Assembly (NCBI GenBank): GCA_035650215.1
Contig: DASRIC010000002.1
Span: forward strand, 18,515-82,514
Source of the DNA: Thermoleophilaceae bacterium
GTDB taxonomy: Bacteria; Actinomycetota; Thermoleophilia; Solirubrobacterales; Thermoleophilaceae
Direction: 5' to 3'
DNA: 64,000 bases
In this document: positions 16,765 to 33,188 of the stretch, in pieces
How the letters are laid out: every line of letters starts with the position of its first letter
How positions within the stretch are numbered: the stretch's first letter is position 1
The notes under the pieces: generated by a model
The model's input: only the letters and a program-made list of their open reading frames with translations
Database searches by the model: none
What the model was told of the DNA's origin: nothing
Translations under genes and position numbers: made by a program

Positions 16765-18638
16765 CCTGGCAGGCCGCGTCGTTCGTGTTGCTCGCCGTTG
16801 CGGTGGCCGCCGGCTTCGCCTGGTACGAGCGCGATCGCCCGCCGTCGCGGGTGCTCGCCCTCGTGGCGGCGCTCGCCGCGCTCGCGGTGGTGGGCCGGCT
16901 CGCCTTCGCCGCGGTGCCAAACGTGAAGCCGACCACCGACATCGTGCTGTTCGCGGGCTTCGCGCTCGGCGCCCTGCCCGGTTTCGCGGTGGGCGCGGTG
17001 ACGGCGATCGTGTCGAACATCTTCCTCTCGCAGGGGCCCTGGACCGTCTGGCAGATGGCGGGCTGGGGCGCCGTGGGGGTGGGCGGCGCGCTGCTCGCGC
17101 GCATCCTGCGCGGGCGCGAGCCCAGCCGGCTGGTGCTAGCGGCGGCGTGCGGGCTCGCGGGGCTGGCCTTCGGCGCCTGGATGGACGTGTACCAGTGGAC
17201 GCTTGGCGCGCGGCAGGACCTCGACTCCTACCTGGTGGTGGCCGCGAGCTCGCTGCCGTACAACCTCGCGCACGCCATGGGGAACGTGGTGTTCTGCCTC
17301 CTGATCGGGCCGGCGTTCGTGCGGGCGCTCGAGCGCTACCGGCGCCGCCTCGAGGTGCGCTGGCCGGCGCCGGCGGGCGCGGCCGCCGGCTGCCTGCTGC
17401 TTGCCGTGACGATCGCGGGCTTCGCTTTGCCGCAGCCCGCGCTCGCCGCCACGACCGCGGACCGGGCCGAGCGCTACCTGCTGCGCGCGCAGAACCCCGA
17501 CGGCGGCTTCGGCGCCGCGCCGGGCCAGAGCTCGTCGCCGCTCTACACGGGCTGGACCGGGCTCGGCCTGGCGGCGGCCGGCCGCAACCCGGTCGACGTC
17601 GAGCGGCGCGGGGGGCGCTCGATCGTGGGCTTCGTGAGGCGGGCGCGCGGGCGCGCGGACATCGGCGAGGTGGAGCGGACGGTGCTGCTCCTGCGCAGCG
17701 CCGGGATCGATCCGCGGCGCTTCGGCGGCCGCAACCTGCTGGCGGCGATCGAGCGCCGCCGCCGGGCCGACGGCTCGATCGCCGGCTTCGTGAGCTACAC
17801 GGCCTTCGGCATTCTCGCGCTGCGCGCGTCAGGGGAGCCCGCCGGCGCCGCGACGGTCGCCTGGCTCGTGCGCAACCAGAACGGGGACGGCGGCTTCGGG
17901 GTGGCCACCTCCTCGGGCAGCGACGCCGACATGACCGGCGCCGCGCTCCAGGCGCTCGCCGCCGTGCGCCGCGGCCGCGGCGCGGCGGCCCGCCGCGCCC
18001 TGGGCTGGCTCCGCTCGGCTCAGAACGGCGACGGCGGCTTCGGGCAGATGCCGGGTCGCAGCTCGAACGCGCAGTCGACCGCCTACGCGGTGCAGGGGCT
18101 GGTGGCGGTCGGGGCGCGCTCGCGGGCGGCCGGCCGGGCGCTCGCCTACCTGCGCGGCCTGGCGCGGCGGGACGGGAGCATCGCCTACTCGCGAACGAGC
18201 TCGCAGACACCGGTCTGGGTGACCGCCCAAGCGCTCATGGCGCTGCGCCGCACCGCGCTGCCGATCGGGGCGGTGGCGCGAGCGCCGCGGGGACGCCGTT
18301 CGCCCAAGCCCGCAGCGGCGGCGGCGACACCGGCTCACCCCGACGGTCGCTCCCGAGTCGGCGCGGGAGAGCCGAGGACCGCGGAGCGCCCGCCGAAGGA
18401 GAACGAACCAAAGTCCAGCGCGAGCGGCCGCCTCGGCGAGCCGGCCGCCGGCCCGGGCGCCGCGCGCGACACGGCCTTTGCGATCGACCCGGCCCCGGCG
18501 TCCCGGAGGGCAGCCGCTGCGGCCGCTCCCACAGGCGGCGGAGACGCCGGCCCGTCCCCGCTGCTTTTCGCGGTGCTCCTTGGAGCCCTGCTGGCGGCGG
18601 CGCTCGCGGTATGGCGGCGCCGGCGGCTCAGCCGATAG
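16761..18638 (+). CDS. Fusion of an ECF S-component-like membrane domain with a prenyltransferase/terpene-cyclase-like alpha/alpha-toroid repeat domain and a C-terminal TM anchor
   Basis: N-terminal ~190 aa has about 6 TM segments (...NVKPTTDIVLFAGFALG...SNIFLSQGPWTVWQMAGWG...). Repeats follow: LLRAQNPDGGFG, LVRNQNGDGGFG and LRSAQNGDGGFGQ. A Pro/Ala-rich linker leads to the anchor LLFAVLLGALLAAALAVWRRRR. Confidence 0.75.
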   Translation: MTWQAASFVLLAVAVAAGFAWYERDRPPSRVLALVAALAALAVVGRLAFAAVPNVKPTTDIVLFAGFALGALPGFAVGAVTAIVSNIFLSQGPWTVWQMAGWGAVGVGGALLARILRGREPSRLVLAAACGLAGLAFGAWMDVYQWTLGARQDLDSYLVVAASSLPYNLAHAMGNVVFCLLIGPAFVRALERYRRRLEVRWPAPAGAAAGCLLLAVTIAGFALPQPALAATTADRAERYLLRAQNPDGGFGAAPGQSSSPLYTGWTGLGLAAAGRNPVDVERRGGRSIVGFVRRARGRADIGEVERTVLLLRSAGIDPRRFGGRNLLAAIERRRRADGSIAGFVSYTAFGILALRASGEPAGAATVAWLVRNQNGDGGFGVATSSGSDADMTGAALQALAAVRRGRGAAARRALGWLRSAQNGDGGFGQMPGRSSNAQSTAYAVQGLVAVGARSRAAGRALAYLRGLARRDGSIAYSRTSSQTPVWVTAQALMALRRTALPIGAVARAPRGRRSPKPAAAAATPAHPDGRSRVGAGEPRTAERPPKENEPKSSASGRLGEPAAGPGAARDTAFAIDPAPASRRAAAAAAPTGGGDAGPSPLLFAVLLGALLAAALAVWRRRRLSR

Positions 18639-19455
18639 CGCGCCCGATCAGGCGGTCCATCACCCGCGCGGGCAGGACGGCGGCCAGCCGGACGCGCAGC
18701 TTGGCGTCGCGCCCCACCAGGTAGCGGGCCCGCGGCCTGCTCGACGTGAGCGCCTCGCCGATCGCCTCGGCCACCACGCGCGGCTCGATGCCGCTCTCGG
18801 TCTCGATCCTCACAGTCTGTTTGCGCACGGCCTCGATGGTGCGCCCGTACAGGCGCTCGGCCTCCGGCGGCAGCTCCGCCAGGATCTCGTCGGCAAGGCG
18901 GTTGCTCGTGTCCCAGATCCGCGTCTTCACGCCGCCGGGCTCGATCACGATCACGTCGACTCCGTGCGCCCGCAGCTCGCGCCGCAGGGAGTCGCTCGCT
19001 CCCTCGAGCCCGAACTTCGAGGCGTTGTAGGCGCCGAGCAGGGGTAGCGCCACGCGGCCGCCGATCGAGCTCACGTTCACGATCCGGCCGCGCGCCGCGC
19101 GCAGGGACGGAAGAAAGGCCTGGGTGACCGCCAGCTGGCCCACGAGGTTGACCTCGAGCTGGTGCCGGAAGCGATCGAGCGGCAGGAACTCGAGCGGCGC
19201 CGCCACCCCGATACCCGCGTTGTTCACGAGCCCCGCGAGCGGAGCGTCGCCAAGCGCCTCCCGGGCGGCGGCGATCGTGCTCGCGTCCGTCACGTCGAGC
19301 TGTACGGCGCGCAGGCCCTCGGCGCGCAGCCGCTCGGCGTCCTCGTCCTTGCGCACGGCTCCGACGGCGTCGAAGCCGAGCTCCGCGAGGTGAAGCGCGG
19401 TCACGTGGCCGATCCCGCTCGAGGCGCCGGTGACCAGCACGGTTCCGGAGGGCAT
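18628..19455 (-). CDS. SDR-family oxidoreductase
   Basis: TGASSGIG cofactor motif, NNAG, and catalytic YNASK. Confidence 0.9.
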   Translation of the reverse strand: MPSGTVLVTGASSGIGHVTALHLAELGFDAVGAVRKDEDAERLRAEGLRAVQLDVTDASTIAAAREALGDAPLAGLVNNAGIGVAAPLEFLPLDRFRHQLEVNLVGQLAVTQAFLPSLRAARGRIVNVSSIGGRVALPLLGAYNASKFGLEGASDSLRRELRAHGVDVIVIEPGGVKTRIWDTSNRLADEILAELPPEAERLYGRTIEAVRKQTVRIETESGIEPRVVAEAIGEALTSSRPRARYLVGRDAKLRVRLAAVLPARVMDRLIGRAIG

Positions 19456-19476
19456 GTTGCGAGACTACCCGGGCCG

Positions 19477-19986
19477 ATGGAGCTGGCCGACGCAATCAGG
19501 ACCCGGCGCACGCACAAGGCCTACGCGCCCGAGCCGGTCGAGCGCGAGCTGCTCGACGAGCTGTTCGAGCTCGCGCGCTGGGCGCCCAACCATCACGTCA
19601 CGAACCCGTGGCGCTTTCGCGTGCTCGGCCCGGATTCGCTCGCCCGGCTGAAGGAGGCGGCCGGGGCCGAGGCCGCCGCCAAGCTCGAGCGCGCGCCCAC
19701 CCTCGTGGTGGCCTCGGCGGCTCAGAGCGGCGACCCGGTGCAGGACGAGGAGGATGTCTGCGCGGCGGCGGTCGCCAGCTACATCGTGTTGCTCGCAGCC
19801 CACGACCGTGGTCTGGCGGGCTACTGGCGCACGCCCGAGGTGCTGCGGCGCCCGGACGGACGCGCGGCCGTCGGCGTGGGTGAGGACGAGCACGTGATCG
19901 GCCTCCTCCACCTCGGCCGGGCACGGCAGGAGAAGTCGCCGCCCGAGCGGCAGGCTCCGGCCGACTTCGTAACGTACCTTCCGTGA
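19477..19986 (+). CDS. Nitroreductase-family protein
   Basis: MELADAIRTRRTHKAYAPEPV...LARWAPNHHVTNPWRF.... The start is set at the internal ATG 19477 of the track ORF. Confidence 0.8.
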   Translation: MELADAIRTRRTHKAYAPEPVERELLDELFELARWAPNHHVTNPWRFRVLGPDSLARLKEAAGAEAAAKLERAPTLVVASAAQSGDPVQDEEDVCAAAVASYIVLLAAHDRGLAGYWRTPEVLRRPDGRAAVGVGEDEHVIGLLHLGRARQEKSPPERQAPADFVTYLP

Positions 19987-21647
19987 TCCCGCGCGCCGAC
20001 GCGCTCGCATCGCTCGAACGCGACTCGTTCGACGTCGTGGTGGTGGGCGGAGGCATCACCGGCGCCGGGGTGGCGCTCGACGCCGCATCGCGCGGCTACA
20101 GCGTGGCGCTGGTCGAGCGGCGCGACTACGCGGCCGGCACCTCGAGCCGCTCGTCCAAGCTCGTGCACGGCGGGCTTCGCTACCTGCAGAACTTCGACCT
20201 CGGCCTGGTGCGCGAGGCGCTGCTCGAGCGCTCGCTGCTCGTGAAGCTCGCGCCCCACCTCGTCAAGCCGCTGCCGCTGCTCGTGCCGAGCTTCGACGGC
20301 AAGCGGCCGGCCCGGCTCACGGGCGTGGGGCTCAACATGTACGACGTGATGTCGTGGCGGCGAGGTCGCGACGGCGAGGAGGAGTGGAGCCCGGCCCGCC
20401 ACCGCACGATCGGGGCCGCCGAGACGCTGGACCTCGTGCCCGCGCTCGCGGCGCGCGAGCCGACCGCCGCGTACCTCTTCTACGACTGCCAGACCGACGA
20501 CGCCCGGCTCGTGCTCACGGTGCTCGCCGAGGCGGAGCGCTTCGGGGCCGTATGCGCAAACCGCTGCGAGGTGACCGGCCTGTTCGAGCGCGGTGGGAGG
20601 GCGGCCGGGGTACTTGTCCGCGACGCGGTGGACGGAGGCGAGTTCGAGCTGAGCGGCGCCAACGTGGTCAACGCCACGGGCGTCTGGGCCGACCGCCTGC
20701 GCCCGGACGAGCTGTACGCCGAGGAGGAGGTGCCGCGCATCCGGCCGAGCCGCGGCACGCACGTCGTGTTGTCGCGCGCCGACCTGGCGGTGGACGCCGG
20801 GGTGATCGTGCCCGCGGCGGGGGGCCGCACCGTGTTCGTGCTGCCGTGGCTCGGCCGCACGCTCGTGGGCACGACCGACAACGACTACGAGGGCGGGCTC
20901 GACCACATCCCGCCCTCGGGCGAGGACGTGGGCTACCTGCTGCACGCGCTCAACGGCTTCTTCGGGCTCTCGCTCGGGCCGCCGGATCTCGCCGGGGCAT
21001 ACGCCGGCGTGCGCCCGCTGATCTCGACCGGCGACCCCAAGAAGTCCGTGGACATCTCCCGCAGGGCAGAGCTGTACGAGACGAGCTCGGGCCTCGTGAC
21101 GATCACGGGCGGCAAGCTCACCACCTGGCGGCGCATGGCCAAGCTGGCGGTCGACCGGATCGTGGAGCGTGAGGGTCGCGAGGCGCCCTGCCGAACGGGG
21201 GAGATCCCCCTGGGTGAGCCGGTCGAGCCCGGCAGCTTGCCCGAGGTGGCGGGCGTCGACGACGAGAGCCGAGCCCATCTCGCCCGGCGCTACGGCCACG
21301 CGGCCCAGTTCGTGCTGCGGCTCGCCGGGGCCGCGCCGTCGCTTGCAGCGCGGATCAGCCCCGATCTGCCGGACATCGCAGCCGAGGCTGCCTACGCCGC
21401 CGGCCACGAGCAGGCCGGCTCGGTGGGCGATGTGCTGCTGCGGCGCACCCGCCTGGGGCTGCTCGATGCGCGCCGGCTGACCGCACTTGGCGCGACCGGG
21501 CCGCGCGCCGTGGCGCTGGCGATGGCCACGGAACTCGCCTGGGACGAGCGGCGGGTCGAGGCCGAGGTCGAGGGCTGGAGCGAGCTCGCTCAGCTCGAGG
21601 GCCTCGTACCGGGGCAGAGGAGGCAGCGTGATCCTGCGGCTGCGTGA
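19983..21647 (+). CDS. glpD: FAD-dependent glycerol-3-phosphate dehydrogenase
   Basis: FDVVVVGGGITGAGVALDAASRG...GTSSRSSKLVHGGLRYL.... GTGA overlap with the upstream stop. Confidence 0.9.
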   Translation: MIPRADALASLERDSFDVVVVGGGITGAGVALDAASRGYSVALVERRDYAAGTSSRSSKLVHGGLRYLQNFDLGLVREALLERSLLVKLAPHLVKPLPLLVPSFDGKRPARLTGVGLNMYDVMSWRRGRDGEEEWSPARHRTIGAAETLDLVPALAAREPTAAYLFYDCQTDDARLVLTVLAEAERFGAVCANRCEVTGLFERGGRAAGVLVRDAVDGGEFELSGANVVNATGVWADRLRPDELYAEEEVPRIRPSRGTHVVLSRADLAVDAGVIVPAAGGRTVFVLPWLGRTLVGTTDNDYEGGLDHIPPSGEDVGYLLHALNGFFGLSLGPPDLAGAYAGVRPLISTGDPKKSVDISRRAELYETSSGLVTITGGKLTTWRRMAKLAVDRIVEREGREAPCRTGEIPLGEPVEPGSLPEVAGVDDESRAHLARRYGHAAQFVLRLAGAAPSLAARISPDLPDIAAEAAYAAGHEQAGSVGDVLLRRTRLGLLDARRLTALGATGPRAVALAMATELAWDERRVEAEVEGWSELAQLEGLVPGQRRQRDPAAA

Positions 21648-22503
21648 CCGCGAGCTCGACCTGAGCGAGCCGATGCTGATGGGGATCGTGAACGCGACCC
21701 CGGACTCGTTCTCGGATCGCCAGGGCGCGAAGGACCTGGACGAGCTCACGCGGCTGGCCGAGGCACAGTTCGCCGACGGCGCCGCGATCGTGGACGTGGG
21801 GGGCGAGTCCGGGCGCACCGACACCGAGGTCGTCTCGGTCGACGAGGAGATCGCGCGCGTGCGGCCGCTGGTGGAGCGTCTGGCGGCGGACGGCATGACC
21901 GTGTCGGTGGACACCTGGCGGGTGCCGGTGGCGCGCGCCGTGCTCGAGGCCGGGGCGGCGATGATCAACGACGTGAGCGGACTCTCCGACGAGCGGCTGG
22001 CCGCCGAGTGCGCCGCGGCCGGCGCCGCCCTCGTGATCACGCACACACGCGCGCGCCCGAAGGAGAAGCTGTTCCCGCCCTACGACGACGTGGTGGCCGA
22101 CGTGCTCGAGCTGCTCGCGGAGCGCGAGCAGGTGGCGCGCGCGCACGGCGTTGCCGGGGAGTCGATCGTGCTCGACCCCGGGATCGACCTCGCCAAGACG
22201 CCCGCCGAGTCGGTGGAGCTGCTGCGCGAGCTGGACCGCCTCACGGCGCTCGGTCGCCCGCTGCTGGTGGCGGTCTCGCGCAAGGACTTCCTCGGCGTGC
22301 TCACCGGCCGGCCGCCCGCCGCCCGCGACCCGGGCACGCTCGCCGCCGTGGGCGCGGCGCTCCGTCGCGGCGCGCGGATCCTGCGGGTGCACGACGTGGC
22401 GGCCGCTCGCGACTACCTGCGCGTGCACGCCGCGCTCGAGGGCGGGCGCGCACTGGAGCCCGAGCGGCGGCTCGAGGGCGACCTGATGCGGGAGCGCGCA
22501 TGA
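21628..22503 (+). CDS. folP: Dihydropteroate synthase
   Basis: GIVNATPDSFSD, VDVGGES, INDVSG and RVHDV motifs. GTG start with GGCAGAGGAGG upstream. Confidence 0.9.
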   Translation: MILRLRDRELDLSEPMLMGIVNATPDSFSDRQGAKDLDELTRLAEAQFADGAAIVDVGGESGRTDTEVVSVDEEIARVRPLVERLAADGMTVSVDTWRVPVARAVLEAGAAMINDVSGLSDERLAAECAAAGAALVITHTRARPKEKLFPPYDDVVADVLELLAEREQVARAHGVAGESIVLDPGIDLAKTPAESVELLRELDRLTALGRPLLVAVSRKDFLGVLTGRPPAARDPGTLAAVGAALRRGARILRVHDVAAARDYLRVHAALEGGRALEPERRLEGDLMRERA

Positions 22504-23288
22504 GCACGATCACGATCGCCCAGCTGTCCGACCTCCACTGCGGCTCGCCGCACTTCGTGCCTACCCTGCTCGACCGGGCCATCGTTGAGGTGAACGAGCT
22601 CCGCCCCGACATCGTGATCGTCTCGGGCGATCTCACGGGCGACGGGCTGCGCGGCGAGTTCCAGCAGGCGGCGGACTATCTCGCCCGGCTCGACTGCGAG
22701 CGCCTGATCGTGATCCCCGGCAACCACGACTCGCGGAACGTCGGCTACGTGCACTTCGAAGAGCTCGTGGGCGAGCGCAGCTCGACGCTTCACCACAACG
22801 GCCTTTCGATCGTGGCCGTCGACTCGACCGAGCCGGATCTCGACCACGGCGTGATCGGGCGCGGGCGCTACCCCTGGATCATCGAGCGCTTCGAGGAGCA
22901 GGAAGCCTTCCTGCGCATCTTCGTGCTCCACCATCACCTGCTGCCGGTGCCAGGAACGGGGCGCGAGCGCAACGTGGTGCACGACGCCGGCGACACGCTC
23001 GAGACACTTCAGCGCGCCGACGTGCACCTCGTGCTGTCCGGGCACAAGCACGTGTCGTACGCGTGGCGGCTCGAGAACCTGTTCGTGGTCAACGCCGGCA
23101 CCGTGTCCACCACCCGCCTGCGGGGCAAGACGAAGCCCTGTTACAACCTGATCGAGGCGTCGCCCGAGCGGGTCACGGTGTTCCGCAAGTACCCCTTCCA
23201 CGAGCAGGACGCGATCCTCTCGTTCGACCCCCGGACCTACGACTACGAGAAGGACCAGGGGCTTCTCGGCGAGACAGCCACCGGCTGA
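22500..23288 (+). CDS. Calcineurin-like metallophosphoesterase
   Basis: SDLHCG, SGDLTGDG, GNHD, HHHL and GHKH motif series. ATGA overlap with folP. Confidence 0.85.
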   Translation: MSTITIAQLSDLHCGSPHFVPTLLDRAIVEVNELRPDIVIVSGDLTGDGLRGEFQQAADYLARLDCERLIVIPGNHDSRNVGYVHFEELVGERSSTLHHNGLSIVAVDSTEPDLDHGVIGRGRYPWIIERFEEQEAFLRIFVLHHHLLPVPGTGRERNVVHDAGDTLETLQRADVHLVLSGHKHVSYAWRLENLFVVNAGTVSTTRLRGKTKPCYNLIEASPERVTVFRKYPFHEQDAILSFDPRTYDYEKDQGLLGETATG

Positions 23289-23377
23289 TCCCCGCACTTC
23301 TCGGCGAGTGCCGTAATTCGGTCCCCGCACCCCCGTTCGGGTCGATAGTGGACACGGACCTGAAGGAGGACCCCCCA

Positions 23378-25012
23378 ATGTTGGCTCGCACCCTCGCAGT
23401 GGCCGCCCTCGGCCTGGGCGCGCTCTTCGCCGCCGGCTCCGCGCAGGCGGCGCCCCCGATCGTCGTCGGCCAAGCCACGTTCGACGGAGCACCTGACATC
23501 GCCGTCGATCCAGGCGGCACGGCTCACATCGCCTGGAACGACAGCGCGCCCGCCATCGACGAGGTGCGCTACTGCCGGCTGGCACGAGGAGCCGGCGGGT
23601 GCGCCGACTCCGAGACCTTCGTCGGCATCCAGCCAGGCGATCAGGACAGCGTCCACGGGCGCGCGCACGTGTTCTTCTCCGCACCCAACGCCGTCACGGT
23701 CTTTCACCAGCGCGGCCTGACCGGAAGCGGTCACATGATGGCCAACCGCTCCACGGACGGCGGTCTGACCTTCGGTGCGCGCAACCGCACCGGGGTGTCC
23801 TTCTCGAACAGCGCCGCCCCCGACGAGGCGGTGTACGGCCCCGGCAACTCGATCACCGCGATCACCGAGGTCACGACCGCGGGCGTTTTCGTTCAGAACG
23901 GCAGCCCGCTCGACAACACGCCTTCCTTGGGCGAGGCCCAGCTGCTCAGCAGCGACAGCGGCGAGGACGCCTCGATCGGCATCGACCCGGCCGACAACAA
24001 GCCGGTCGCCGTGTACGAGATCCAGAGCGATCCCGCCCAGCTGGCCTGGCGCAAGCTCGCCGGATCGCCCACCGAGGCGAACATCAACACGCCGGCCCAG
24101 TGGGGTCCGCAGAACATCCTCTCGGCCGACCACATCTCCGCGGCCGACGGCACCGCCCTGGCCGGCGGGCCGAACGGGCTCTTCCTGTTCTTCCAGCAGC
24201 GCCAGCCAGATCGCGGCTGGGTCTCGAAGTTCACCGGCAGCGGCTGGACCGCGCCCGTGCTGATCAGCGACGGTCGCCCGTTCAACCAGTACGACCTGCA
24301 TCAGGACGCGAGCGGGCGCCTGCATGCGGTGTGGAACGCCTACAGCGACGAGCGGCTGCGCTACACGTGGTCCGACGACGGCGTGAACTGGTCGGCCGCG
24401 GTGGACATCGCGCGCGGTGAGAGCTATCCCGATGTCAGGGTGGCCGCGGCGGCGGACCACCAGGGCTTCGCCGTCTGGAACCGGGGCGGCCCCGACGTGA
24501 TGGCCGTGCCGCTCGAGGCCCTGCCCGAGCCGCCCGTGTCGCCCGACGTGCCGCCGCTGGACACCACCGCTCCTGCCGTGTCCGGCTTCGGCATCAGCGG
24601 CACGACGCTGCTGCCCGGCCAGGGCGCGAGCTTCGTGTTCAACGCGACCGAGGCCGGCACCGCGGTGCTCACGATCCAGAAGCGGGTCAAGGGCCTCAAG
24701 ATGAAGAAGGGCGGGCGGCTGCGCTGCGTGCCACGCACGCGCAAGCTGCTGCGCCGGCTGCGCAGCTCGGTCGACTCCGCCGTGGCCTACCGGCGGCTGC
24801 TGCGCAAGCGGCGCTGCAAGGTCTACAAGGGGATCGGGCGCATCCGCCAGGCGGTCGGCGCCGGCACCAACACGATCGTCTTCAACGGCCGCATCGCGGG
24901 CCGCAAGCTCGGCCCGGGCCGCTACCGGGCGCTCCTGAAGCTCACCGACCTGACGGGCAACGTCTCGCGCACCGAGGTCGTGCGCTTCCGGGTGCTGCGG
25001 CGCCGCCGCTGA
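23378..25012 (+). CDS. Secreted BNR/Asp-box (sialidase-fold-like) protein with a C-terminal Ig-like domain and a very basic tail
   Basis: RBS GAAGGAGGA and signal peptide ...AAGSAQA. Asp-boxes STDGGLTF and SDDGVNWS. C-terminus ...RFRVLRRRR. Confidence 0.65.
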   Translation: MLARTLAVAALGLGALFAAGSAQAAPPIVVGQATFDGAPDIAVDPGGTAHIAWNDSAPAIDEVRYCRLARGAGGCADSETFVGIQPGDQDSVHGRAHVFFSAPNAVTVFHQRGLTGSGHMMANRSTDGGLTFGARNRTGVSFSNSAAPDEAVYGPGNSITAITEVTTAGVFVQNGSPLDNTPSLGEAQLLSSDSGEDASIGIDPADNKPVAVYEIQSDPAQLAWRKLAGSPTEANINTPAQWGPQNILSADHISAADGTALAGGPNGLFLFFQQRQPDRGWVSKFTGSGWTAPVLISDGRPFNQYDLHQDASGRLHAVWNAYSDERLRYTWSDDGVNWSAAVDIARGESYPDVRVAAAADHQGFAVWNRGGPDVMAVPLEALPEPPVSPDVPPLDTTAPAVSGFGISGTTLLPGQGASFVFNATEAGTAVLTIQKRVKGLKMKKGGRLRCVPRTRKLLRRLRSSVDSAVAYRRLLRKRRCKVYKGIGRIRQAVGAGTNTIVFNGRIAGRKLGPGRYRALLKLTDLTGNVSRTEVVRFRVLRRRR

Positions 25013-25045
25013 GCGTGCGGCGGGCGCGGCGGCGACAATGCCGCC

Positions 25046-26227
25046 GTGCCCGCCATCGCGCTCATCGACGGGGAGCACCATCCCGCCGCGGTCCGGGACG
25101 CCCTCGCCGGCCTCGAGCTGGCGGGGGTGATCTTCTGCGGCGGTGAGGAGAAGCTGCCGCCGGGGCCGCTCGAGGAGCACTACGGGCTGCCGGTCGAGAC
25201 CGATCCGGAGCCCGCCCTGCGGCGGCTCGCGCCCGCGGCTGACGCCGTGCTCGACCTGGCCGACGAGCCGGTCCTTCCCGCGTCGGCCAAGTTGCGGGTG
25301 GCGGCGCTGGCGCTCTCGCTCGGCCTGCGCTACGAGGCGCCCGGCGTGCTGCTGGAGCCGCCGCGCTATGAGCCGGTGGCCTTCGCGGGCCCCAAGCTCG
25401 CCGTGATCGGCACCGGCAAGCGCACCGGCAAGACGGCCGTGGCCGGGCACTGGGCCCGGCTGCTCGACGAGCTGGGCGCCGATCCGGTGGTGGTCTGCAT
25501 GGGTCGCGGCGGGCCCGCCAAGCCGCAGCTGGCCGGGGCGGACACCGATCTCGAAGGGTTGCTTCGGATCGCGGACGCCGGCGGCCACGCGGCGTCCGAC
25601 TTTCTCGAGGACGCGGTGGTGGCCGGGGTGCGCACGGTCGGCTGCCGGCGCGTGGGCGGGGGGTTCGCGGGCGCCCCGGCCGAGTCGAACGTGCCCGCCG
25701 GCGCCGCGCTCGCCGCCTCGCTCGAGCCGGGCGCGCTCGTGTTCGAGGGCTCCGGCGCGTGCGTGCCGCCGGTGGAGGTGGACCGCACCGTGTGCGTGCT
25801 CGGCGCGGGCGCGCCCGAGCCGTTCGCTGAGTACCGCGTGGCGCGCGCCCAGCTCGTGCTGGCGGCGCCGGGAGCGCAGGCGCCCCCGGCCGACGCGCTC
25901 CCGTTCGAGCTGCGCCCCGAGCCGCTCGAGCCGCTGCCGGACGGCGCTCGGGTGGCGCTGTTCACCACCGGCGCGCCGTCCGTTGCCGGAGTGGAGCCGC
26001 GCGTCTCGTCGACCAACCTCGCCCGCCGCGGCGCGCTGGCGGCGGACCTCGAGCGCGCCGGCCGGGAGGGCTGCGAGGTGTACCTCACCGAGCTCAAGGC
26101 AGCCGCAATCGACACGGTGGCGAGGCACGCCCGCCGGGCCGGTGCGCGCGTGGTGTTCGTGCGCAACCGCCCGGCGGGCGACGGGCTCGACGACGCGCTC
26201 GTCAACCTGTATCGCGATGCCGGCTGA
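25046..26227 (+). CDS. Cyclic 2,3-diphosphoglycerate synthetase-like protein
   Basis: GTG start and P-loop-like VIGTGKRTGKTAV. Length and layout match my recollection of the archaeal cDPG synthetase family. The gene overlaps a 2-phosphoglycerate kinase gene by 11 nt. Confidence 0.6.
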   Translation: MPAIALIDGEHHPAAVRDALAGLELAGVIFCGGEEKLPPGPLEEHYGLPVETDPEPALRRLAPAADAVLDLADEPVLPASAKLRVAALALSLGLRYEAPGVLLEPPRYEPVAFAGPKLAVIGTGKRTGKTAVAGHWARLLDELGADPVVVCMGRGGPAKPQLAGADTDLEGLLRIADAGGHAASDFLEDAVVAGVRTVGCRRVGGGFAGAPAESNVPAGAALAASLEPGALVFEGSGACVPPVEVDRTVCVLGAGAPEPFAEYRVARAQLVLAAPGAQAPPADALPFELRPEPLEPLPDGARVALFTTGAPSVAGVEPRVSSTNLARRGALAADLERAGREGCEVYLTELKAAAIDTVARHARRAGARVVFVRNRPAGDGLDDALVNLYRDAG

Positions 26228-27062
26228 GACGATCGTCGTCCACAAGGGGCGCGGGTTGCCCTACTCGAAGGGGCTGATGGCGCAGTCGCTGTCGGCCACG
26301 GGGATCGGCCTCGAGCGGGCCTTCGAGCTCGCACGCCTGATCGAGGCCCGGCTCGCCAGCCGTGGCGACGACGAGATCGACACCGCGGCGCTCCAGGCGC
26401 TTGCCGAGGAAGTGCTGGTGGCCGAGGAGGGCGCGCCGGCGCTGCGCCGCTACCGCGGCTGGCGGCGGCTCGACCGGCTTGACCGCCCGCTCGTGGTCCT
26501 GATCGGCGGCACCACCGGCGTCGGCAAGTCGACGCTCGCCAGCATGCTCGCCGCCCGCCTCGGCGTGAACCGGGTGATCGCCACCGACGTGATCCGCCAG
26601 GTGCTGAGGGCGTTCTTCACCAGCGAGGCGATGCCGACCGTGCACCACTCCGCGTTCGAGGCCGGCGGCATCAGCGGCTACCGCGACCAGGCCGAGCGGG
26701 TGGGCACCGGCATCGCCGCCATCGTCGAGCGTGCCGCCAACGAGGCCAAGCCGGTGGTGGTGGAGGGCGTGCACGTGGTGCCCGGTGGCGTTCACCCGCG
26801 CGTCCGCGAGCGCTGCGTGCTCGTGGAGGCGCTCGTGGTGGTGGAGGACCCCGAGCTGCACATGGGCCACTTCTCCCACCGTCCGGGCACCCGCCCGGCG
26901 GAGCGCTACCTGGCGCGCTTCGAGGACATCCGGCGCCTGCAGGACCACCTCTGGGACCGGGCGCGCTCGGAGGGGGTGGTGGTCATCGACAACGACAGCG
27001 TCGACGGCACGCTCGCCCGGTTGATGGAGCTGGTGCTGGACGCCGTCGAGGAGGACCGCTAG
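26217..27062 (+). CDS. 2-phosphoglycerate kinase
   Basis: N-terminal ATP-cone-like segment (VVHKGRGLPYSKGLMAQSL...). Then P-loop IGGTTGVGKSTLA and ...VVEGVH.... Confidence 0.7.
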   Translation: MPAETIVVHKGRGLPYSKGLMAQSLSATGIGLERAFELARLIEARLASRGDDEIDTAALQALAEEVLVAEEGAPALRRYRGWRRLDRLDRPLVVLIGGTTGVGKSTLASMLAARLGVNRVIATDVIRQVLRAFFTSEAMPTVHHSAFEAGGISGYRDQAERVGTGIAAIVERAANEAKPVVVEGVHVVPGGVHPRVRERCVLVEALVVVEDPELHMGHFSHRPGTRPAERYLARFEDIRRLQDHLWDRARSEGVVVIDNDSVDGTLARLMELVLDAVEEDR

Positions 27063-27099
27063 TGGCGGCTGCAAGCACTAGTAGGGTTCGGCGCCGCCC

Positions 27100-28233
27100 A
27101 TGACCGTCCTGAAGAGAGAAGAGCTCGAGGGAAGTCCGCTTGCCGACCTCCACGCGATCGCGTCGGAGCTCGGCCTCGAGGGCTTTCGCACGAAGCGCAA
27201 GGCCGAGTTGATCGCCGCCATCCTCGACGCCACCGGCGACGACGCCGACGCCGAGGAAACGTCCGAGGACACCTCGGAGGACACGTCCGAGGAGACGTCG
27301 GAGGACACCTCCGAGGACACATCGGAAGACACGTCCGAGGGCACGTCCGAGGACACCTCGGAGGGCACCTCCGAGGACGAGGAGCCCGAGGAGCCGAAGC
27401 AGGAGCAGCCCGAGCGCGAGGAGGAGATCGCGAGCGGCGTGCTCGACATCCTCGCCAACGGCAGCGGCTTCGTGCGCGTGGACCCGGCCGGCCAGTCGCG
27501 CGACGACGTGTACGTCTCGCCCGCCCAGATCCGCCGCTGCGAGCTCCGCGCCGGCGACGAGGTGAGCGGGCCGGTGCGCCCGCCGCGCCGCAACGAGCGC
27601 CATCCGTCGCTCGTGCGCGTGGCGACCGTGAACGGGGGGGACGCCGAGCCGCCCGAGGAGCGCCCCTGGTTCGGGGAGCTCACCGCGGTCTTCCCGTCGG
27701 CCCGCCTGTCAGCCCCGGCCGCAATCGCCGAGGTGCCGTTCGGGCGCGGCTCACGGGTTGCGATCTCCGGACCGCCCGGAGCGGGCGCCACCACCCTGCT
27801 GCGCGAGCTGGCCGCCGAGCTGGGCCGCGATGCGGAGCTGGGCGCGCTCGTGGTGCTGGCGGGAGTGAGGCCCGAGGAGCTGGCCGACTGGCAGGCGATC
27901 GAGGGCGTGGCCGCGGTCGGCGGCAGCTTCGACCGCTCGGCCGACGCCCAGGCGCAGGCCGCCGAGCTGGCGATCGAGCGCGCCAAGCGCCGCGTCGAGC
28001 GCGGCGGTCACGCGGTGGTGCTCGTGGACTCCCTCGGCGCTCTCCCGGCCGGGGCCCGCCGCCGTGTGTTCGGCGCCGCGCGCGCCACCCAGGAGGGCGG
28101 GACGCTCACCGTGGTCGCGGCGACGGGCGATGCGCCGGAGGCGCTGCGCTGGGCAACCACCCGGATCGTGCTCGAGCCGGGTGGCCGGGTGGGCGCCGAG
28201 AGCGGAGCCCTGCGCGCCGACGCCCTTACTTGA
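27100..28233 (+). CDS. Rho-like protein with degenerate ATPase motifs
   Basis: Rho_N-like LADLHAIASELGLEGFRTKRKAELIAAIL. CSD-like RNA-binding block GVLDILANGSGFVRV...DVYVSPAQIRRCELRAGDEV. The P-loop reads GPPGAGAT instead of PPKAGKT, Walker-B-like is VVLVDSLG, and RRVFGAARATQEGGTLTVVAT is present. Confidence 0.75.
   Translation: MTVLKREELEGSPLADLHAIASELGLEGFRTKRKAELIAAILDATGDDADAEETSEDTSEDTSEETSEDTSEDTSEDTSEGTSEDTSEGTSEDEEPEEPKQEQPEREEEIASGVLDILANGSGFVRVDPAGQSRDDVYVSPAQIRRCELRAGDEVSGPVRPPRRNERHPSLVRVATVNGGDAEPPEERPWFGELTAVFPSARLSAPAAIAEVPFGRGSRVAISGPPGAGATTLLRELAAELGRDAELGALVVLAGVRPEELADWQAIEGVAAVGGSFDRSADAQAQAAELAIERAKRRVERGGHAVVLVDSLGALPAGARRRVFGAARATQEGGTLTVVAATGDAPEALRWATTRIVLEPGGRVGAESGALRADALT
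27259..27378 (+). repeat. 10 x 12-nt in-frame tandem repeat encoding (T-S-E-D/E/G)10
   Basis: acS-tcS-gaR-gRc units repeat ten times, giving TSEDTSEDTSEETSEDTSEDTSEDTSEGTSEDTSEGTSED inside the Rho-like gene. Confidence 0.9.
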
Positions 28234-29605
28234 CCACGAGCGTCTGGGCCATCGTGGTCGGATGGACCAGGCACACGAGCTTGTAGGTGCCCTTCACCTT
28301 CGGCGTGACCGTGTAGCTGCCCTGGGTCCGGCCCAGGTACACCGACGAGAACCCGCGCGGGCCGTTGGCGACGGTCACGCTGTGCGGCCGGGCGCCGGAG
28401 AAGCTCCAGCTCACCGGCACGCCCACCTTGGCCGTGACCTTCCCGGGCCTGAAGAAGTCGTCTCCGACCGTGAGCGCGTTGCCGTCGAAGGCCGTGAATG
28501 CGCCCTGCGGCCTGGCCAGCTGCGGCACCTCGAGGTCGTAGTTCGGGGTGCGGTCGAAGTGCTTCGGCCGGTTGATGTCGACCATGTCGGTCGGCATCGG
28601 GCCGCAGCGCTTGACCGACTCGTCGCGCACCATGAAGCCGAACCAGAAGCCCATCGAGGCCACGTGGAGGTTGTGGTTGTCGTGAACCGCCACCCGCCGC
28701 AGCACCTCGCCGCCGGTGACCGGCACGCCCTGGCTCGTGGCGAACGTGCCGTTGCCGATCGGGCCGGGCTCGTGAAGGATCGGCCGGATCGTGTTGTACA
28801 CGTGGTCCGGCATGCCGTGATAGGCGCGCGCCTTGTAGATCGTGCGCCCGCAGGTGCGGCTCGAGAGCGTCTGGTACTTCGCGCCGCCGTGCTGATGCGA
28901 GGCGGCGACCATGAGCCGGCCCTTGAACCCCTCGGGCACCGTCCAGTCGCTCGCGGAGACGAAGTTCGAGCCTTTCCGGCCGCCTCCGGGCACGTCGTAG
29001 GCCATGCCGTTCGCGCCGTGCGAGCAGTCGGCGATCACGGTGGGCAGCACCGGGGTGCGCTTCTCGGTGGTGTACCGGACCCTGGTGCGCACGTAGAAGC
29101 TCTTCGGGCGCTTGTAGTGGTTCATCACCATGGCCGTGAGACGCCAGTCGGGCGCGGCGCCCGACTCGGTGCGGTTCGTGATCCCGTACTTGCCGCGGTA
29201 GGGGGCCGGCAGCGCCATCGCGGTGCGCCCGAGCGGGTGCTCCTCGCCGCGACCGCCGATGAAGCCGGAGGAGCCCCAGCAGCTTCCGGGCCCCTGGTTC
29301 ATCGTGCCGGGGGCGAAGTAGAGGAAATGGTGGACCATCATCTTCGCGATCGGCAGCGGCTCGGCGTCCGGGTCCTTGGAGTCCACCAGGGCCATCTCCT
29401 GCCAGCCCGTGATGTAGCCCGGCTTGGCCGGCGCCTGGCTCCCGTCGGCGCTCAGCGGGACGTTGTGGGTGTCATGCACGTACGGCAGCGAGTCGATCTT
29501 GGGGGAGTAGAGCGTGAGCAGCCGCTCCTTGGCGCCGGCCACCGGCGCGGTCACTCCCAACACCACGATCGCTGCGGCCATCCCGGCCACAACCTTGCGC
29601 TTCAC
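28226..29605 (-). CDS. Secreted putative copper protein: PHM/DBH(MtN19)-like ligand pattern plus a C-terminal type-1-Cu cupredoxin domain
   Basis: Signal peptide MKRKVVAGMAAAIVVLGVTAPVAGA. N-terminal ligand candidates are HH(92-93), H163, HxH(237/239) and M318. The C-terminal domain has H408...C445-x2-H448-x3-M452 (CLVHPTTM). The CDS call is solid; the function call is tentative. Confidence 0.7.
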   Translation of the reverse strand: MKRKVVAGMAAAIVVLGVTAPVAGAKERLLTLYSPKIDSLPYVHDTHNVPLSADGSQAPAKPGYITGWQEMALVDSKDPDAEPLPIAKMMVHHFLYFAPGTMNQGPGSCWGSSGFIGGRGEEHPLGRTAMALPAPYRGKYGITNRTESGAAPDWRLTAMVMNHYKRPKSFYVRTRVRYTTEKRTPVLPTVIADCSHGANGMAYDVPGGGRKGSNFVSASDWTVPEGFKGRLMVAASHQHGGAKYQTLSSRTCGRTIYKARAYHGMPDHVYNTIRPILHEPGPIGNGTFATSQGVPVTGGEVLRRVAVHDNHNLHVASMGFWFGFMVRDESVKRCGPMPTDMVDINRPKHFDRTPNYDLEVPQLARPQGAFTAFDGNALTVGDDFFRPGKVTAKVGVPVSWSFSGARPHSVTVANGPRGFSSVYLGRTQGSYTVTPKVKGTYKLVCLVHPTTMAQTLVVK

Positions 29606-29646
29606 CCCGACCTCCCGGTTCTTGCAGCGAGCCTGCGAGAAACAGC

Positions 29647-30114
29647 TTAGCGGCGGTAGGCGACCCGGCGCCAGCTCGGTTCGGGCGAGAGCTCGATGAG
29701 CTCGAAGTTGCGGTCCGGCTGGGCGTATCCGAATGAGGTCGTGTCCTCGTCGAACACGATCTCGAGCTCGCCCTCCATCACGCGCTGGTCGAGCCAGGCG
29801 CCGCGGAACACGAGCCGGCGGATCCAGTGGACGAGCGAGCGGTCGGACGGCCCGTTCAGGTCGATCCAGCAGTCGTTGATGTGCTCACCGAGGTCGGAGT
29901 GCGGCTCGGTCACCTCGCCGTTCACGGCGAGATTCACGAGGTCCTCGCGCTCGTCGTCGCCGAGCGGGGCCTCCACGAAGCTGAGCTTGGTGGCCGCCTG
30001 CTCGACGCGCTCGGTGAAGTCGCGCTCGTTGAACGTGAAGCGCAGCTCACCGTACTCGAGCACATAGTCCGAGCCGGACTCGTAGTTTCCGCGTCGCGCA
30101 GTATCCATACCCAT
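29647..30114 (-). CDS. Hypothetical acidic cytoplasmic protein (155 aa)
   Basis: Clean ORF with normal composition (MGMDTARRGNYESGSDYVLEYGELRFTFNERDF...). No recognisable motif. It is divergent from the large-protein operon. Confidence 0.55.
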   Translation of the reverse strand: MGMDTARRGNYESGSDYVLEYGELRFTFNERDFTERVEQAATKLSFVEAPLGDDEREDLVNLAVNGEVTEPHSDLGEHINDCWIDLNGPSDRSLVHWIRRLVFRGAWLDQRVMEGELEIVFDEDTTSFGYAQPDRNFELIELSPEPSWRRVAYRR

Positions 30115-30225
30115 GGGGGCCGCCGGCGGTGCCGGGTCGTCGGGATACTACGGTCGATTCCTTCGCGGGCGAGAGTGCTGCAACGAGGGTTGCAACAGTT
30201 GGGCGCGCCGGCTCGATCGGGGGCT

Positions 30226-30262
30226 ATGTCAGCGGGTGTGGGCGGGGGTAGGATTTGCGCAA
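30226..30262 (+). promoter_or_regulatory. Candidate promoter (-35 ATGTCA, 17-nt spacer, -10 TAGGAT) with an abutting TTGCGCAA palindrome
   Basis: The hexamers lie about 44 nt upstream of the GTG at 30298. The palindrome TTGCGCAA at 30255-30262 follows the -10 element directly. A related dyad TGCAAC-gagg-GTTGCA lies at 30179-30194. Confidence 0.3.
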
Positions 30263-30297
30263 CCTGACGGTCCCCCATCCCCCAGGGAGCGCCGTAC

Positions 30298-30480
30298 GTG
30301 AGCGACGTTGAAGACTCGCCCCGAAGCTCGCCGCAGTTGGATCGCACGTCGGTCATCAGCCGCAAGGCCAAGGCCGTGATAGCCGGAGTGACCGCGCTGC
30401 TCACGCTCGCGACCGGCGTCCTGACGCTGAAGCTGGTGAGCTCACGAGCCCTCCCGGCGCCGGGATGCGGAGCGGCGTGA
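30298..30480 (+). CDS. Small single-TM protein (60 aa), first ORF of the large-protein operon
   Basis: GTG start. Hydrophilic N-terminus, then KAVIAGVTALLTLATGVLTLKLV (one TM). Its stop TGA (30478-80) overlaps a GTG (30477) of the next gene. Confidence 0.45.
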   Translation: MSDVEDSPRSSPQLDRTSVISRKAKAVIAGVTALLTLATGVLTLKLVSSRALPAPGCGAA

Positions 30481-33188
30481 ACCCGGTCGAGCTGCTGCGT
30501 CACCTCGCGGAACGTCTCTGGGCGCTGGCGCGGGACGCCGCCGACGAGCTCGCCGCGGGCGCCGCCAACTTCCTGCCCGAACCGAACGCGCCGGCGCCGC
30601 TGCAGGGGCGTCTGCTGACCGCCTTCGCGACGCTGCCCCAGACGAACGCGCTGGCCCGGCTCGCCCGAGACATCCTGGGCGAGCTGCCTGAGGGCGGCCC
30701 GATCCGCCTGCACGGCTGGCGGCGCAGCCCGGAGCCGCCGATCGGGGTCGCCCTGGTGCTCACGGAGGGCGACGACAGAGCGGTGCTGGCGATCACGCCC
30801 AGCGACCCGCCCAAGCTCGACGTGGTGGTCACCGCGGGCGCCGCGATCAGCGTCGAGAGCGGGACCGGGCCCTGGCGAGCCCGTGCGGCGGTCTCCTCCG
30901 ACGTCGTGTGGGACGCCGAGCTGTCGCCGAACACGCCGGCCCCCTCGCCGAGCGGGACCGCGACGATCGCCATCCAGCGCGTGGAGCCGTTCCGGATCGG
31001 ACCTCCGCAGGGCCCCGGCTTGTCGGCGCGCACCATCAGCTGCGAGCTGCGGGCGAGCCCCGGCTCGGCCACCTCGTTCCGGCTGAACGCGGAGGAGTTC
31101 AGCGCCGCGCTGCTTCCCGAGCCGATCGCCGCGCTCCTGGGGGCCGGACGGGACCGCGCGACGGCGCCGACGCGGCTCGGCCTGGCGGCCGACGCCCTGG
31201 GCGGGCTCCGTTTCGGTGAGTCGGGCGTCCGGGTGGAGCTGCCCGGGCGGCTGTCGCTTCCCGGCGTGTCCGCGCACGGGTTCGGCCTCGAGCTCGCCGG
31301 GCACGACGCCGGCCTGGCGCTCACGGCGGCGGTGTCCCTGAAGGCGCAGCTGCCGGGCGTCCCGGTGACGGCCCAGATCGAAGGGGTGGGCATCACGGTG
31401 CCGTTCTCGGTCACGAATGCGGCACTCGGCCCACCGAGCGCGATCGAGCCGCCGCTCCCCTCGGGCATCGGCCTCGAGCTCGGCCTGCCGCCGGTCTCGG
31501 GCGGCGGCGACGTGCGCAGGACCGCCACGGGCTACGCGGGCGTCTTCGACGTCGACCTGGGCGTCTTCCGGGTCCAGGCGCTCGGGGTGTTGGAGCCGCC
31601 GGCGGGCGGCCGGCCCACCTCGCTGCTGGCGCTGCTGGCCGCGATGTTCCCCTATCCGGGCATCCAGCTTGGCTTCGGCTTCGCCATCGACGCGGTGGGC
31701 GGGCTCGTGGGCATCAACCGCCGCGTCGACGTCGAGCGGCTGCGCGCGCTCGTTGGCGACGGCCAGGCTGACCGGATCCTGTTCCCGGACAACGCGGTGG
31801 CCCGCGCTCGAGAGATCACGGACTCACTCGACGCGGTGTTCCCCTCGGCCCGCGGTCGCTTCGTGGTCGGCCCGACGGTCCGCATCAACTGGGGAGGGCG
31901 CATGGTCACCCTCGCCGGAGCCGTGGTGCTCGACCTCCCCGGCCCGCGCCAGGTGGTGTTGCTGGGGCGGCTGCTCGTGGCCGTGCCCGACCCGGCCGCG
32001 CCGCTGATCCGGCTGCAGGCGAGCGTGCTCGGCCGGATCGACCCGACGGTCCCGGAGACGGAGCTCCTGGCCTCGCTCGCCGGCTCGCGAATCGTGGCCG
32101 TGCCGGTCGACGGAGAGATCTACCTGCTCGTCCGCGGCGGTCCGCAGGCGGTGTTCGTGCTCTCGGCCGGCGGCTTCCACCCGCGCTACACACGCCCGCC
32201 CGGCGTGCCTGCCCTACGACGGGTGACAATGGACCTGGGCGGCGGCTTCCTGGGCCTGCGCGCCGAGGCGTACCTGGCGGTGACCTCGAACGCCATGATG
32301 TTCGGCGCCAAGCTCCAGCTCGACGCCACGATCGCCGGCTGCGGCGTCGAGGGACATCTCGGACTCGACGCGCTGTTCGTGTGGGAGCCGACCTTCTCGT
32401 TCTCGGTCCACGTCTACGCGAGCGTCGCCGTGCGGGCGTTCGGCAGGCGGCTGGCGAGCGTGGGGCTGGACTTCACCCTCGAGGGACCGGCGCCATGGCA
32501 TGCCTTCGGCACGGGCAGCATCTCGGTGCTGTTCTGGGACGTCTCGCTCGACTTCGACGTGCGCTGGGGCGACGCGCCGGTCGCGCGCCTGGAGGAGCGC
32601 GACATCTTCCCGCTGCTCGAGCGCGCCCTCGCAAATCCCGAGGCCTGGACCGCGGAGCGGCCGCTCGAGCAGCGCAACGGAGTGCGGCTGACCGACGCGG
32701 CGCGGGCCGATCTCACGAACGGCCGCGCGGTGCAGGCGGACGTGACGCTGCGGATCTCCCAGAACGTGGTCCCGCTGGGCGAGCCCATCACGCGCTTCGC
32801 CAGGACGCACATCCCGCGGCAGCAGTGGGACATGCTGGGCGACGGCGCCGCGATCACGGACCGCTTCATCCCGGGCGAGTTCTTCGACCTGACCGAGGAC
32901 GAGCAGCTCACGCTGCCGGCGTTCGCGGAGGTCCAGAGCGGCATCACGATCTCGGAGAGGGACGTGGTCTCGGGGCCGGCGCACGTGGTCGACGACAGCT
33001 ACGAGACCGGGTACAAGGTGGAGCCGGGCTTCCAGCCGGCCGATCCCGGCATCAGCTTCAACCTGACGATCGGGCGCTTCTCACTCGAGCTGTTCGCGCA
33101 CGTCGCGACGCCGTCGGAGCGGCTCGACCGCTGGCGCCTCGCCCAGAAGACGCTGCCGGGCGCCGGGGGACCGGTGCTGATGCGATGA
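30465..33188 (+). CDS. Large hypothetical protein A (907 aa; the start could be GTG 30477)
   Basis: Long ORF with normal residue composition and no signal peptide or TM. The central and C-terminal part is beta-strand-rich: ...GIQLGFGFAIDAVGGLVGINRRVD...GGFHPRYTRPPGVP...LDALFVWEPTFSFSVHVYASVAVRAFG...ISVLFWDVSLDFDVRWGD. Confidence 0.8.
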   Translation: MRSGVNPVELLRHLAERLWALARDAADELAAGAANFLPEPNAPAPLQGRLLTAFATLPQTNALARLARDILGELPEGGPIRLHGWRRSPEPPIGVALVLTEGDDRAVLAITPSDPPKLDVVVTAGAAISVESGTGPWRARAAVSSDVVWDAELSPNTPAPSPSGTATIAIQRVEPFRIGPPQGPGLSARTISCELRASPGSATSFRLNAEEFSAALLPEPIAALLGAGRDRATAPTRLGLAADALGGLRFGESGVRVELPGRLSLPGVSAHGFGLELAGHDAGLALTAAVSLKAQLPGVPVTAQIEGVGITVPFSVTNAALGPPSAIEPPLPSGIGLELGLPPVSGGGDVRRTATGYAGVFDVDLGVFRVQALGVLEPPAGGRPTSLLALLAAMFPYPGIQLGFGFAIDAVGGLVGINRRVDVERLRALVGDGQADRILFPDNAVARAREITDSLDAVFPSARGRFVVGPTVRINWGGRMVTLAGAVVLDLPGPRQVVLLGRLLVAVPDPAAPLIRLQASVLGRIDPTVPETELLASLAGSRIVAVPVDGEIYLLVRGGPQAVFVLSAGGFHPRYTRPPGVPALRRVTMDLGGGFLGLRAEAYLAVTSNAMMFGAKLQLDATIAGCGVEGHLGLDALFVWEPTFSFSVHVYASVAVRAFGRRLASVGLDFTLEGPAPWHAFGTGSISVLFWDVSLDFDVRWGDAPVARLEERDIFPLLERALANPEAWTAERPLEQRNGVRLTDAARADLTNGRAVQADVTLRISQNVVPLGEPITRFARTHIPRQQWDMLGDGAAITDRFIPGEFFDLTEDEQLTLPAFAEVQSGITISERDVVSGPAHVVDDSYETGYKVEPGFQPADPGISFNLTIGRFSLELFAHVATPSERLDRWRLAQKTLPGAGGPVLMR

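Follow-up and report, generated by a model that had tools for sequence, protein, structure and literature searches.

An overlapping gene pair homologous to cyclic 2,3-diphosphoglycerate synthetase and 2-phosphoglycerate kinase in a soil Thermoleophilaceae bacterium

Recent papers place cyclic 2,3-diphosphoglycerate (cDPG) and the synthetase that forms it (cDPGS) only in hyperthermophilic methanogens (PMC10690619). The enzyme of Methanothermus fervidus has been crystallised both in the apo form (PDB 8ORK) and with ADP, Mg and 2,3-diphosphoglycerate (2,3-DPG) bound (PDB 8ORU), and a two-step SN2 mechanism was described for the latter (PMC10690619). A membrane-bound activity that hydrolyses cDPG has been described in Methanothermobacter, without its gene (review PMC1224877). 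Here we describe an overlapping gene pair in a 64,000-nt stretch of DNA from a Thermoleophilaceae bacterium (contig DASRIC010000002.1 of assembly GCA_035650215.1; hereafter the window), of which gene 1 is homologous to archaeal cDPGS and gene 2 to 2-phosphoglycerate kinase (2PGK). This translationally coupled pair is predicted to encode an active 2PGK and an active cDPGS, leading from 2-phosphoglycerate (2-PG) through 2,3-DPG to cDPG, a reading to which we assign a probability of roughly 0.75. The locus is a genuine example of a known pair of enzymes, ordinary in appearance, from a host group that has not been studied. The surprise is limited by existing annotation: bacterial members are already labelled as such in JGI and KEGG, and those of Streptomyces, Gaiellales and Acidimicrobiales at NCBI as well.

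Gene 1 begins with a GTG at 25046 and ends with a TGA at 26225-26227. When its product was searched against PDB sequences using phmmer, cyclic 2,3-diphosphoglycerate synthetases were the sole strong matches, namely the M. fervidus enzyme (8ORU/8ORK; E 1.2e-55, query residues 4-378 against chain residues 7-432) and 9SXB (E 7.5e-52). In a MAFFT alignment, 42% of residues were identical to the M. fervidus protein over the full length. An AF2 model generated from the family alignment reached a pLDDT of 94.8 and a pTM of 0.90, and Foldseek retrieved the substrate-bound 8ORU as its top match (TMq 0.85, E 2e-33), with 8ORK at 0.80; the next fold, LpxK, scored only 0.44. LpxK is also the nearest structural neighbour named by the crystallographers of cDPGS (PMC10690619). 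The two-domain cDPGS fold, which combines an unusual N-terminal domain with a P-loop core, was recovered in the gene 1 model. The first-pass annotation of this DNA, made from the letters alone, had proposed a resemblance to cDPGS and had named a different P-loop family as the competing outcome; both the PDB search and the fold comparison place the protein with the cDPG synthetases. In a large protein collection, more than 5,000 clusters are homologous to gene 1, the closest of them being Thermoleophilaceae proteins; many bear the JGI name 'cyclic 2,3-diphosphoglycerate synthetase', and all have the new Pfam family PF27272. The same family (CpgS_N) is assigned to the window's own gene 1 protein in precomputed Pfam annotation.

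Residue conservation was scored across 32 bacterial and archaeal cDPGS sequences, with the roles of ligand-contacting residues taken from the structure paper (PMC10690619) and mapped through the alignment onto the window numbering. Ten of the 12 ligand-contacting residues are invariant. In gene 1 these are E35, K36, K125, R126, K129, T130, D185, T308, E349 and K351, with E45, K46, K145, R146, K149, T150, D208, T353, E404 and K406 as their respective M. fervidus counterparts. In the archaeal enzyme, E45 and K46 contact 2,3-DPG from the N-terminal domain belonging to the partner subunit, K145, R146, K149 and T150 belong to Walker A, D208 is a Mg ligand, and E305, P335 and T353 contact the adenosine and ribose (PMC10690619). 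Every residue that touches 2,3-DPG in 8ORU is invariant. Judged by sequence and by the model, gene 1 is a true homologue of the archaeal cDPG synthetase, and would be expected to share its activity.

Although the mechanically called open reading frame (ORF) opens with a TTG (25983), gene 2 itself starts at the ATG at 26217 and stops with a TAG (27062). Searches against NCBIfam gave the two 2PGK models as best matches, ahead of all others by 130 bits: PRK04220 with 237 bits, aligned end to end (residues 5-278 against positions 6-293 of the 306 in the model), and PRK12337 with 247 bits. At the N-terminus the Pfam ATP-cone domain scores 24.4 bits, just under its cut-off of 25.8, and the Gaiellales and Thermococcus orthologues have a recorded ATP-cone match; the P-loop part also matches Pfam AAA_33/AAA_18. 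The kinases encoded after cDPGS in Streptomyces, Acidimicrobiales, Acidimicrobiia, Gaiellales and Thermococcus can each be aligned with gene 2 over their whole length, with the GxxGxGKS motif invariant among the aligned kinases, and those of the bacterial lineages that were scanned match the same 2PGK models. Gene 2 is thus a full-length 2PGK homologue, in agreement with the first-pass reading of a 2PGK with an ATP-cone-like N-terminus. The two overlapping genes proposed there were likewise recovered at the coordinates given, on the plus strand and with an overlap of 11 nt, as were the P-loops GTGKRTGKTAV (gene 1) and GGTTGVGKST (gene 2). GC content at third codon positions (GC3) is 0.94 in gene 1 and 0.965 in gene 2, as is typical of coding DNA where the genome is GC-rich. 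Three antisense ORFs (23243-26245, 25366-26334 and 26202-27074) do not have this codon-position GC pattern and were set aside as artefacts of the high GC content.

When one genome was scanned for each prokaryotic species, 419 contigs proved to encode a relative. The locus counts given here use the best 80 of these, nearly all of which are soil metagenome-assembled genomes (MAGs) of Thermoleophilaceae, with the closest relative 93% identical. The 2PGK gene directly follows cDPGS in 79 of the 80 loci, the lone exception being cut by a contig end, and of the 76 loci in which both gene ends could be placed, about 66 have the two genes overlapping, by 8 or 11 nt in most cases. The ORFs are intact across the 80 loci at 56-93% protein identity, which implies purifying selection. 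Coupling of the two genes extends to Streptomyces, Acidimicrobiales, Acidimicrobiia, Gaiellales and Thermococcus, and since 2PGK overlaps cDPGS in Thermococcus, the coupled arrangement did not originate as something peculiar to bacteria. Genes for phosphoglycerate mutase were found beside cDPGS in two other lineages: an apgM-type gene lies just upstream of cDPGS on an Acidimicrobiia contig (L084, 3782-4969), and an iPGM gene overlaps cDPGS on a Bipolaricaulota contig (L089, 5352-6908). These neighbours tie the module to the metabolism of 2-PG and 3-phosphoglycerate, and fit 2-PG as its input. The same Bipolaricaulota contig also has an operon for an ABC transporter, the end of which lies 10 nt before cDPGS.

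We would like to note that several observations weigh against the prediction of an active pair that makes cDPG. Pfam and NCBIfam scans of gene 1 matched no model, although this blank is not evidence against family membership, because PF27272 is newer than the Pfam copy scanned. The window synthetase is without two segments of the M. fervidus enzyme (about 300-330 and 356-372) that are kept in Streptomyces, Acidimicrobiia and archaea. The adenosine-contacting E305 falls in a segment deleted from all Thermoleophilaceae sequences, and P335 has no counterpart placed on the reconstructed numbering, while T353 aligns with the invariant T308; these three residues are accessory contacts, not catalytic residues. 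Gene 2 scores below both 2PGK equivalog cut-offs (237 against 343 bits for PRK04220, and 247 against 603 bits for PRK12337), and its kinase family includes enzymes with other substrates, such as the mevalonate-3-phosphate 5-kinase PRK12339. In the kinases of the window and of the related locus L001, an internal loop (about 27 aa, following SAFEAG) is also missing; it is kept in another related locus (L062) and in other lineages. Among the RNA-seq runs searched for the locus, none contained it. In the open papers found, the occurrence of cDPG is described for methanogens only, with no bacterial measurement of it or of 2,3-DPG, and those among them that name cDPGS concern archaea only (one of them uses it as an outgroup for ArcE) and do not discuss bacterial homologues.

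The kinase scores and the trimming of the synthetase, together with the long branches that part the bacterial clade from the characterised enzymes, would suit a pair that acts on a related substrate or yields another product, whether 2,3-DPG as the end product or another cyclic pyrophosphate made from a phosphorylated hydroxy-acid, so that no cDPG pool would form. We consider such a change of substrate or product unlikely, given that the 2,3-DPG contacts of 8ORU are all invariant, including the pair E45/K46 contributed by the partner subunit, that the fold is kept at a TM of 0.85, and that Thermococcus has the same pair and other lineages have phosphoglycerate mutase neighbours. The route from 2-PG to cDPG therefore remains our preferred reading of the pair, which is listed with its neighbours in Table 1.

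Table 1. Coordinates of the gene pair and adjoining features, numbered from the first letter of the window
Feature	Coordinates	Strand	Basis or remark
cDPG synthetase homologue (CpgS family), gene 1, 393 aa, trimmed form	25046..26227	+	PDB 8ORU/8ORK match, PF27272, AF2/Foldseek
2-phosphoglycerate kinase homologue, gene 2, 281 aa, ATP-cone-like N-terminus + P-loop kinase	26217..27062	+	NCBIfam PRK04220/PRK12337
11-nt overlap of gene 1 stop and gene 2 start (translational coupling)	26217..26227	+	sequence ATGccggcTGA
Conserved metallophosphoesterase, 261 aa	22503..23288	+	Pfam Metallophos, E 5e-18
Secreted Asp-box protein gene, outside the pathway	23375..25012	+	homologue in 12/80 related loci
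Rho-like gene directly downstream of 2PGK	27100-28233	+	position of canonical rho elsewhere

To account for such a pair in an actinobacterium, the first-pass annotation had offered either lateral transfer or an unrecognised bacterial use of the pathway. We generated an unrooted maximum-likelihood tree of 69 full-length cDPGS members, which has three well-supported groups. The window protein falls in a clade of 20 rows with the Thermoleophilaceae and Gaiellales proteins; a second clade, of 18 rows, holds those of Acidimicrobiia, Acidimicrobiales and Streptomyces; and a third, low-GC clade of 28 rows holds the enzymes of Methanobacteriales and Thermococcus together with those of a Bipolaricaulota MAG and an Actinomycetota MAG. 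The archaeal proteins nearest to the window cDPGS are 35-39% identical to it in the 32-sequence alignment. The GC content of the pair (0.74-0.75) is like that of its flanks, and its GC3 is like that of its neighbours. The depth of the Thermoleophilia clade, the Rho/L31 flanks shared across classes and the flank-like GC all indicate long residence in Actinomycetota, and we argue for an old actinobacterial inheritance that is widespread in that phylum. A recent acquisition from hyperthermophilic methanogens, with the pair as a foreign island, might be suggested by the first description of the pathway in those organisms and by a family common to both domains. We regard it as very improbable: the archaeal sequences are too distant for it, the window protein lies inside the well-supported Thermoleophilia clade, the flanking genes (GlpD, FolP and phosphoesterase upstream, a Rho-family gene downstream) are kept in about 70 species, the pair likewise has a Rho gene after it in Acidimicrobiia, Acidimicrobiales and a basal contig of the window's clade, and the base composition matches the neighbours. 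A lateral transfer of recent date is thus contradicted, and of the two proposals the unrecognised use in bacteria fits better. Moreover, M. fervidus-type cDPGS is common in the mesophilic genera Methanobacterium and Methanobrevibacter, so that even in archaea the gene is no marker of hyperthermophily.

That gene 1 is instead an ArcE-type arginine synthetase (arginine + ADP + Pi <-> citrulline + NH3 + ATP), or has some other function of the P-loop superfamily, is scarcely credible: ArcE homologues are widespread in bacteria and have low similarity to cDPGS homologues (PMC11032458), and an exhaustive search of 50%-identity cluster representatives (166 clusters at E<1e-30, about 786 at E<1e-3) indicates that remote paralogous families exist, but gene 1 combines its full-length identity to a characterised cDPGS with invariant 2,3-DPG-binding residues and coupling to a 2PGK, and no ornithine carbamoyltransferase or carbamate kinase gene occurs among the neighbours inspected in the window (19983-33188; at the related loci, the search was limited to counterparts of the genes that adjoin the pair in the window).

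The gene order around the pair in Thermoleophilaceae is GlpD, FolP, metallophosphoesterase, cDPGS, 2PGK, Rho-like and a 155-aa protein. In most loci of this family, the phosphoesterase is preceded by a FolP-like pterin-binding gene (21649-22503 on the plus strand of the window) and a gene for a GlpD-type glycerol-3-phosphate dehydrogenase. The phosphoesterase itself is distantly similar to Rv0805/GpdQ-type phosphodiesterases. It lies upstream of cDPGS on the same strand in 67 of the 80 loci, at a distance of 60 nt or less in 32 of them, and it precedes cDPGS in all three sampled contigs of the same clade from outside Thermoleophilaceae, with a 4-nt overlap in two (Gaiellales-type). Between the window and Gaiellales, the phosphoesterases are 67% identical and the synthetases only 47%. 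No phosphoesterase adjoins the pair in the Streptomyces and Acidimicrobiia loci. We take the phosphoesterase to be probably the third member of the module, and its candidacy as a cDPG or 2,3-DPG hydrolase is reasonable but unproven. On Gaiellales-type contigs, genes for a GlpX-like fructose-bisphosphatase (L086, 4018-5028; L087, 6195-7220) and a DUF59/FeS-assembly protein stand directly after the module, unlike in the window.

Between the phosphoesterase and cDPGS, the window has a gene for an Asp-box protein, which retrieved no Pfam or NCBIfam match. In most other loci the phosphoesterase abuts cDPGS, and the Asp-box gene is an insertion that interrupts an otherwise tight three-gene module in the window's sub-lineage. 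On the other side of the pair, a canonical rho with the Walker A motif SPPKAGKT is found in Acidimicrobiia, Acidimicrobiales and the basal contig of the window's clade, followed by rpmE (L31) in two of these three. The Walker A lysines are lost (GPPGAGAT-type) in the window's Rho-like gene and in nearly all Thermoleophilaceae loci with a readable motif, and the gene has the appearance of a degenerate Rho, conserved throughout the family, at the canonical locus. An Rfam scan of 18000-30500 at E<=1 for a riboswitch or other RNA element returned two chance-level matches only, with no c-di-AMP riboswitch detected, and scans for promoters and terminators were uninformative in DNA of such high GC content. 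A gene for a 4HFCP-synthase (MfnB-like, PF04476; L083, 2263-3018) was found about 3 kb from the cDPGS-2PGK pair of Streptomyces sp. WAC 01529; this family is best known from methanogens.

In the pathway that we propose, 2PGK would convert 2-PG and ATP to 2,3-DPG, and cDPGS would convert 2,3-DPG and ATP to cDPG, ADP and Pi. The mechanism described for 8ORU may apply to the window cDPGS too, in which case the 3-phosphate would attack the pyrophosphate once formed, Pi would leave, and the phosphoanhydride ring would close to give cDPG. Near-identical DNA was found only in rhizosphere and soil metagenomes, and the host is therefore a mesophilic soil bacterium. In such a host, the product would probably not serve in heat protection; it would more likely be a polyanionic compatible solute that, paired with K+, counters osmotic stress or drying, or a store of phosphate, carbon and energy, or both. 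Roles as a store and as a solute have already been discussed for Methanothermobacter (PMC1224877). The upstream metallophosphoesterase could plausibly reopen cDPG or dephosphorylate it. A wider proposal can be offered only tentatively, and we think it possible but somewhat doubtful: that cDPG, instead of being special to (hyper)thermophilic methanogens, is commonly made by mesophilic Actinomycetota of soils (Thermoleophilia, Acidimicrobiia and some Streptomyces), that the three-gene module of Thermoleophilia includes its hydrolase in the phosphoesterase, and that through cycles of drying and rewetting the compound would both store phosphate, carbon and energy and act as a solute that balances K+.

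Selection maintains complete genes for the pathway in commonplace soil bacteria of an abundant family, and cultured Streptomyces have them also. If these bacteria make cDPG, its presumed role in heat protection would widen to desiccation, osmotic balance or phosphate economy in soils, a mesophilic and shorter enzyme pair would become available for the biotechnological production of this extremolyte, and the phosphoesterase would be the first genetic handle on cDPG breakdown. Culturable carriers exist, among them Streptomyces sp. WAC 01529 and S. anatolicus, making the claim directly testable.

Compared with the cDPG pathway of M. fervidus and Methanothermobacter, the window agrees in both enzyme families, in the two-domain fold of the synthetase, in the Walker A motif GTGKRxGKT, in the ten invariant contacts to 2,3-DPG, Mg and ATP, and in the kinase layout of ATP-cone followed by P-loop. 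The host differs, being a mesophilic actinobacterium of aerobic-soil type instead of a (hyper)thermophilic methanogen, and cDPG is here a predicted product. The window synthetase has 393 aa against 460 aa in M. fervidus, and is without about 25 residues around E305 and about 17 near 356-372. Furthermore, the window genes overlap as an operon, whereas the Methanothermobacter cDPGS has no kinase gene within 5 kb, and the window pair is accompanied by a conserved metallophosphoesterase, unlike in the methanogens.

ArcE of Thermococcus kodakarensis (TK2200; PMC11032458) is a distant cDPGS relative from the same P-loop superfamily, with an ATP/ADP-dependent reaction of ligase type. It pairs with arcB/arcC and not with 2PGK, its context features do not occur at the window locus, and it is set apart here on its published description. 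The Thermococcus-type system represented by 9SXB (whose sequence resembles P0447 of Thermococcus paralvinellae) is like the window in that cDPGS is followed by an overlapping ATP-cone 2PGK. It differs in belonging to the low-GC clade of the tree, in having no phosphoesterase partner, and in having a mannosylglycerate-synthase-like glycosyltransferase as its neighbour. The pairs of Streptomyces (for example sp. WAC 01529, CP029617) and Acidimicrobiia, which are automatically annotated as '2,3-diphosphoglycerate synthetase', form a separate supported clade, with 36-44% identity to the window enzyme, full-length proteins of 451-466 aa and no phosphoesterase alongside. Nevertheless, they share with the window the overlapping cDPGS-2PGK arrangement, and the Acidimicrobiia pair, like that of the window, lies just upstream of rho.

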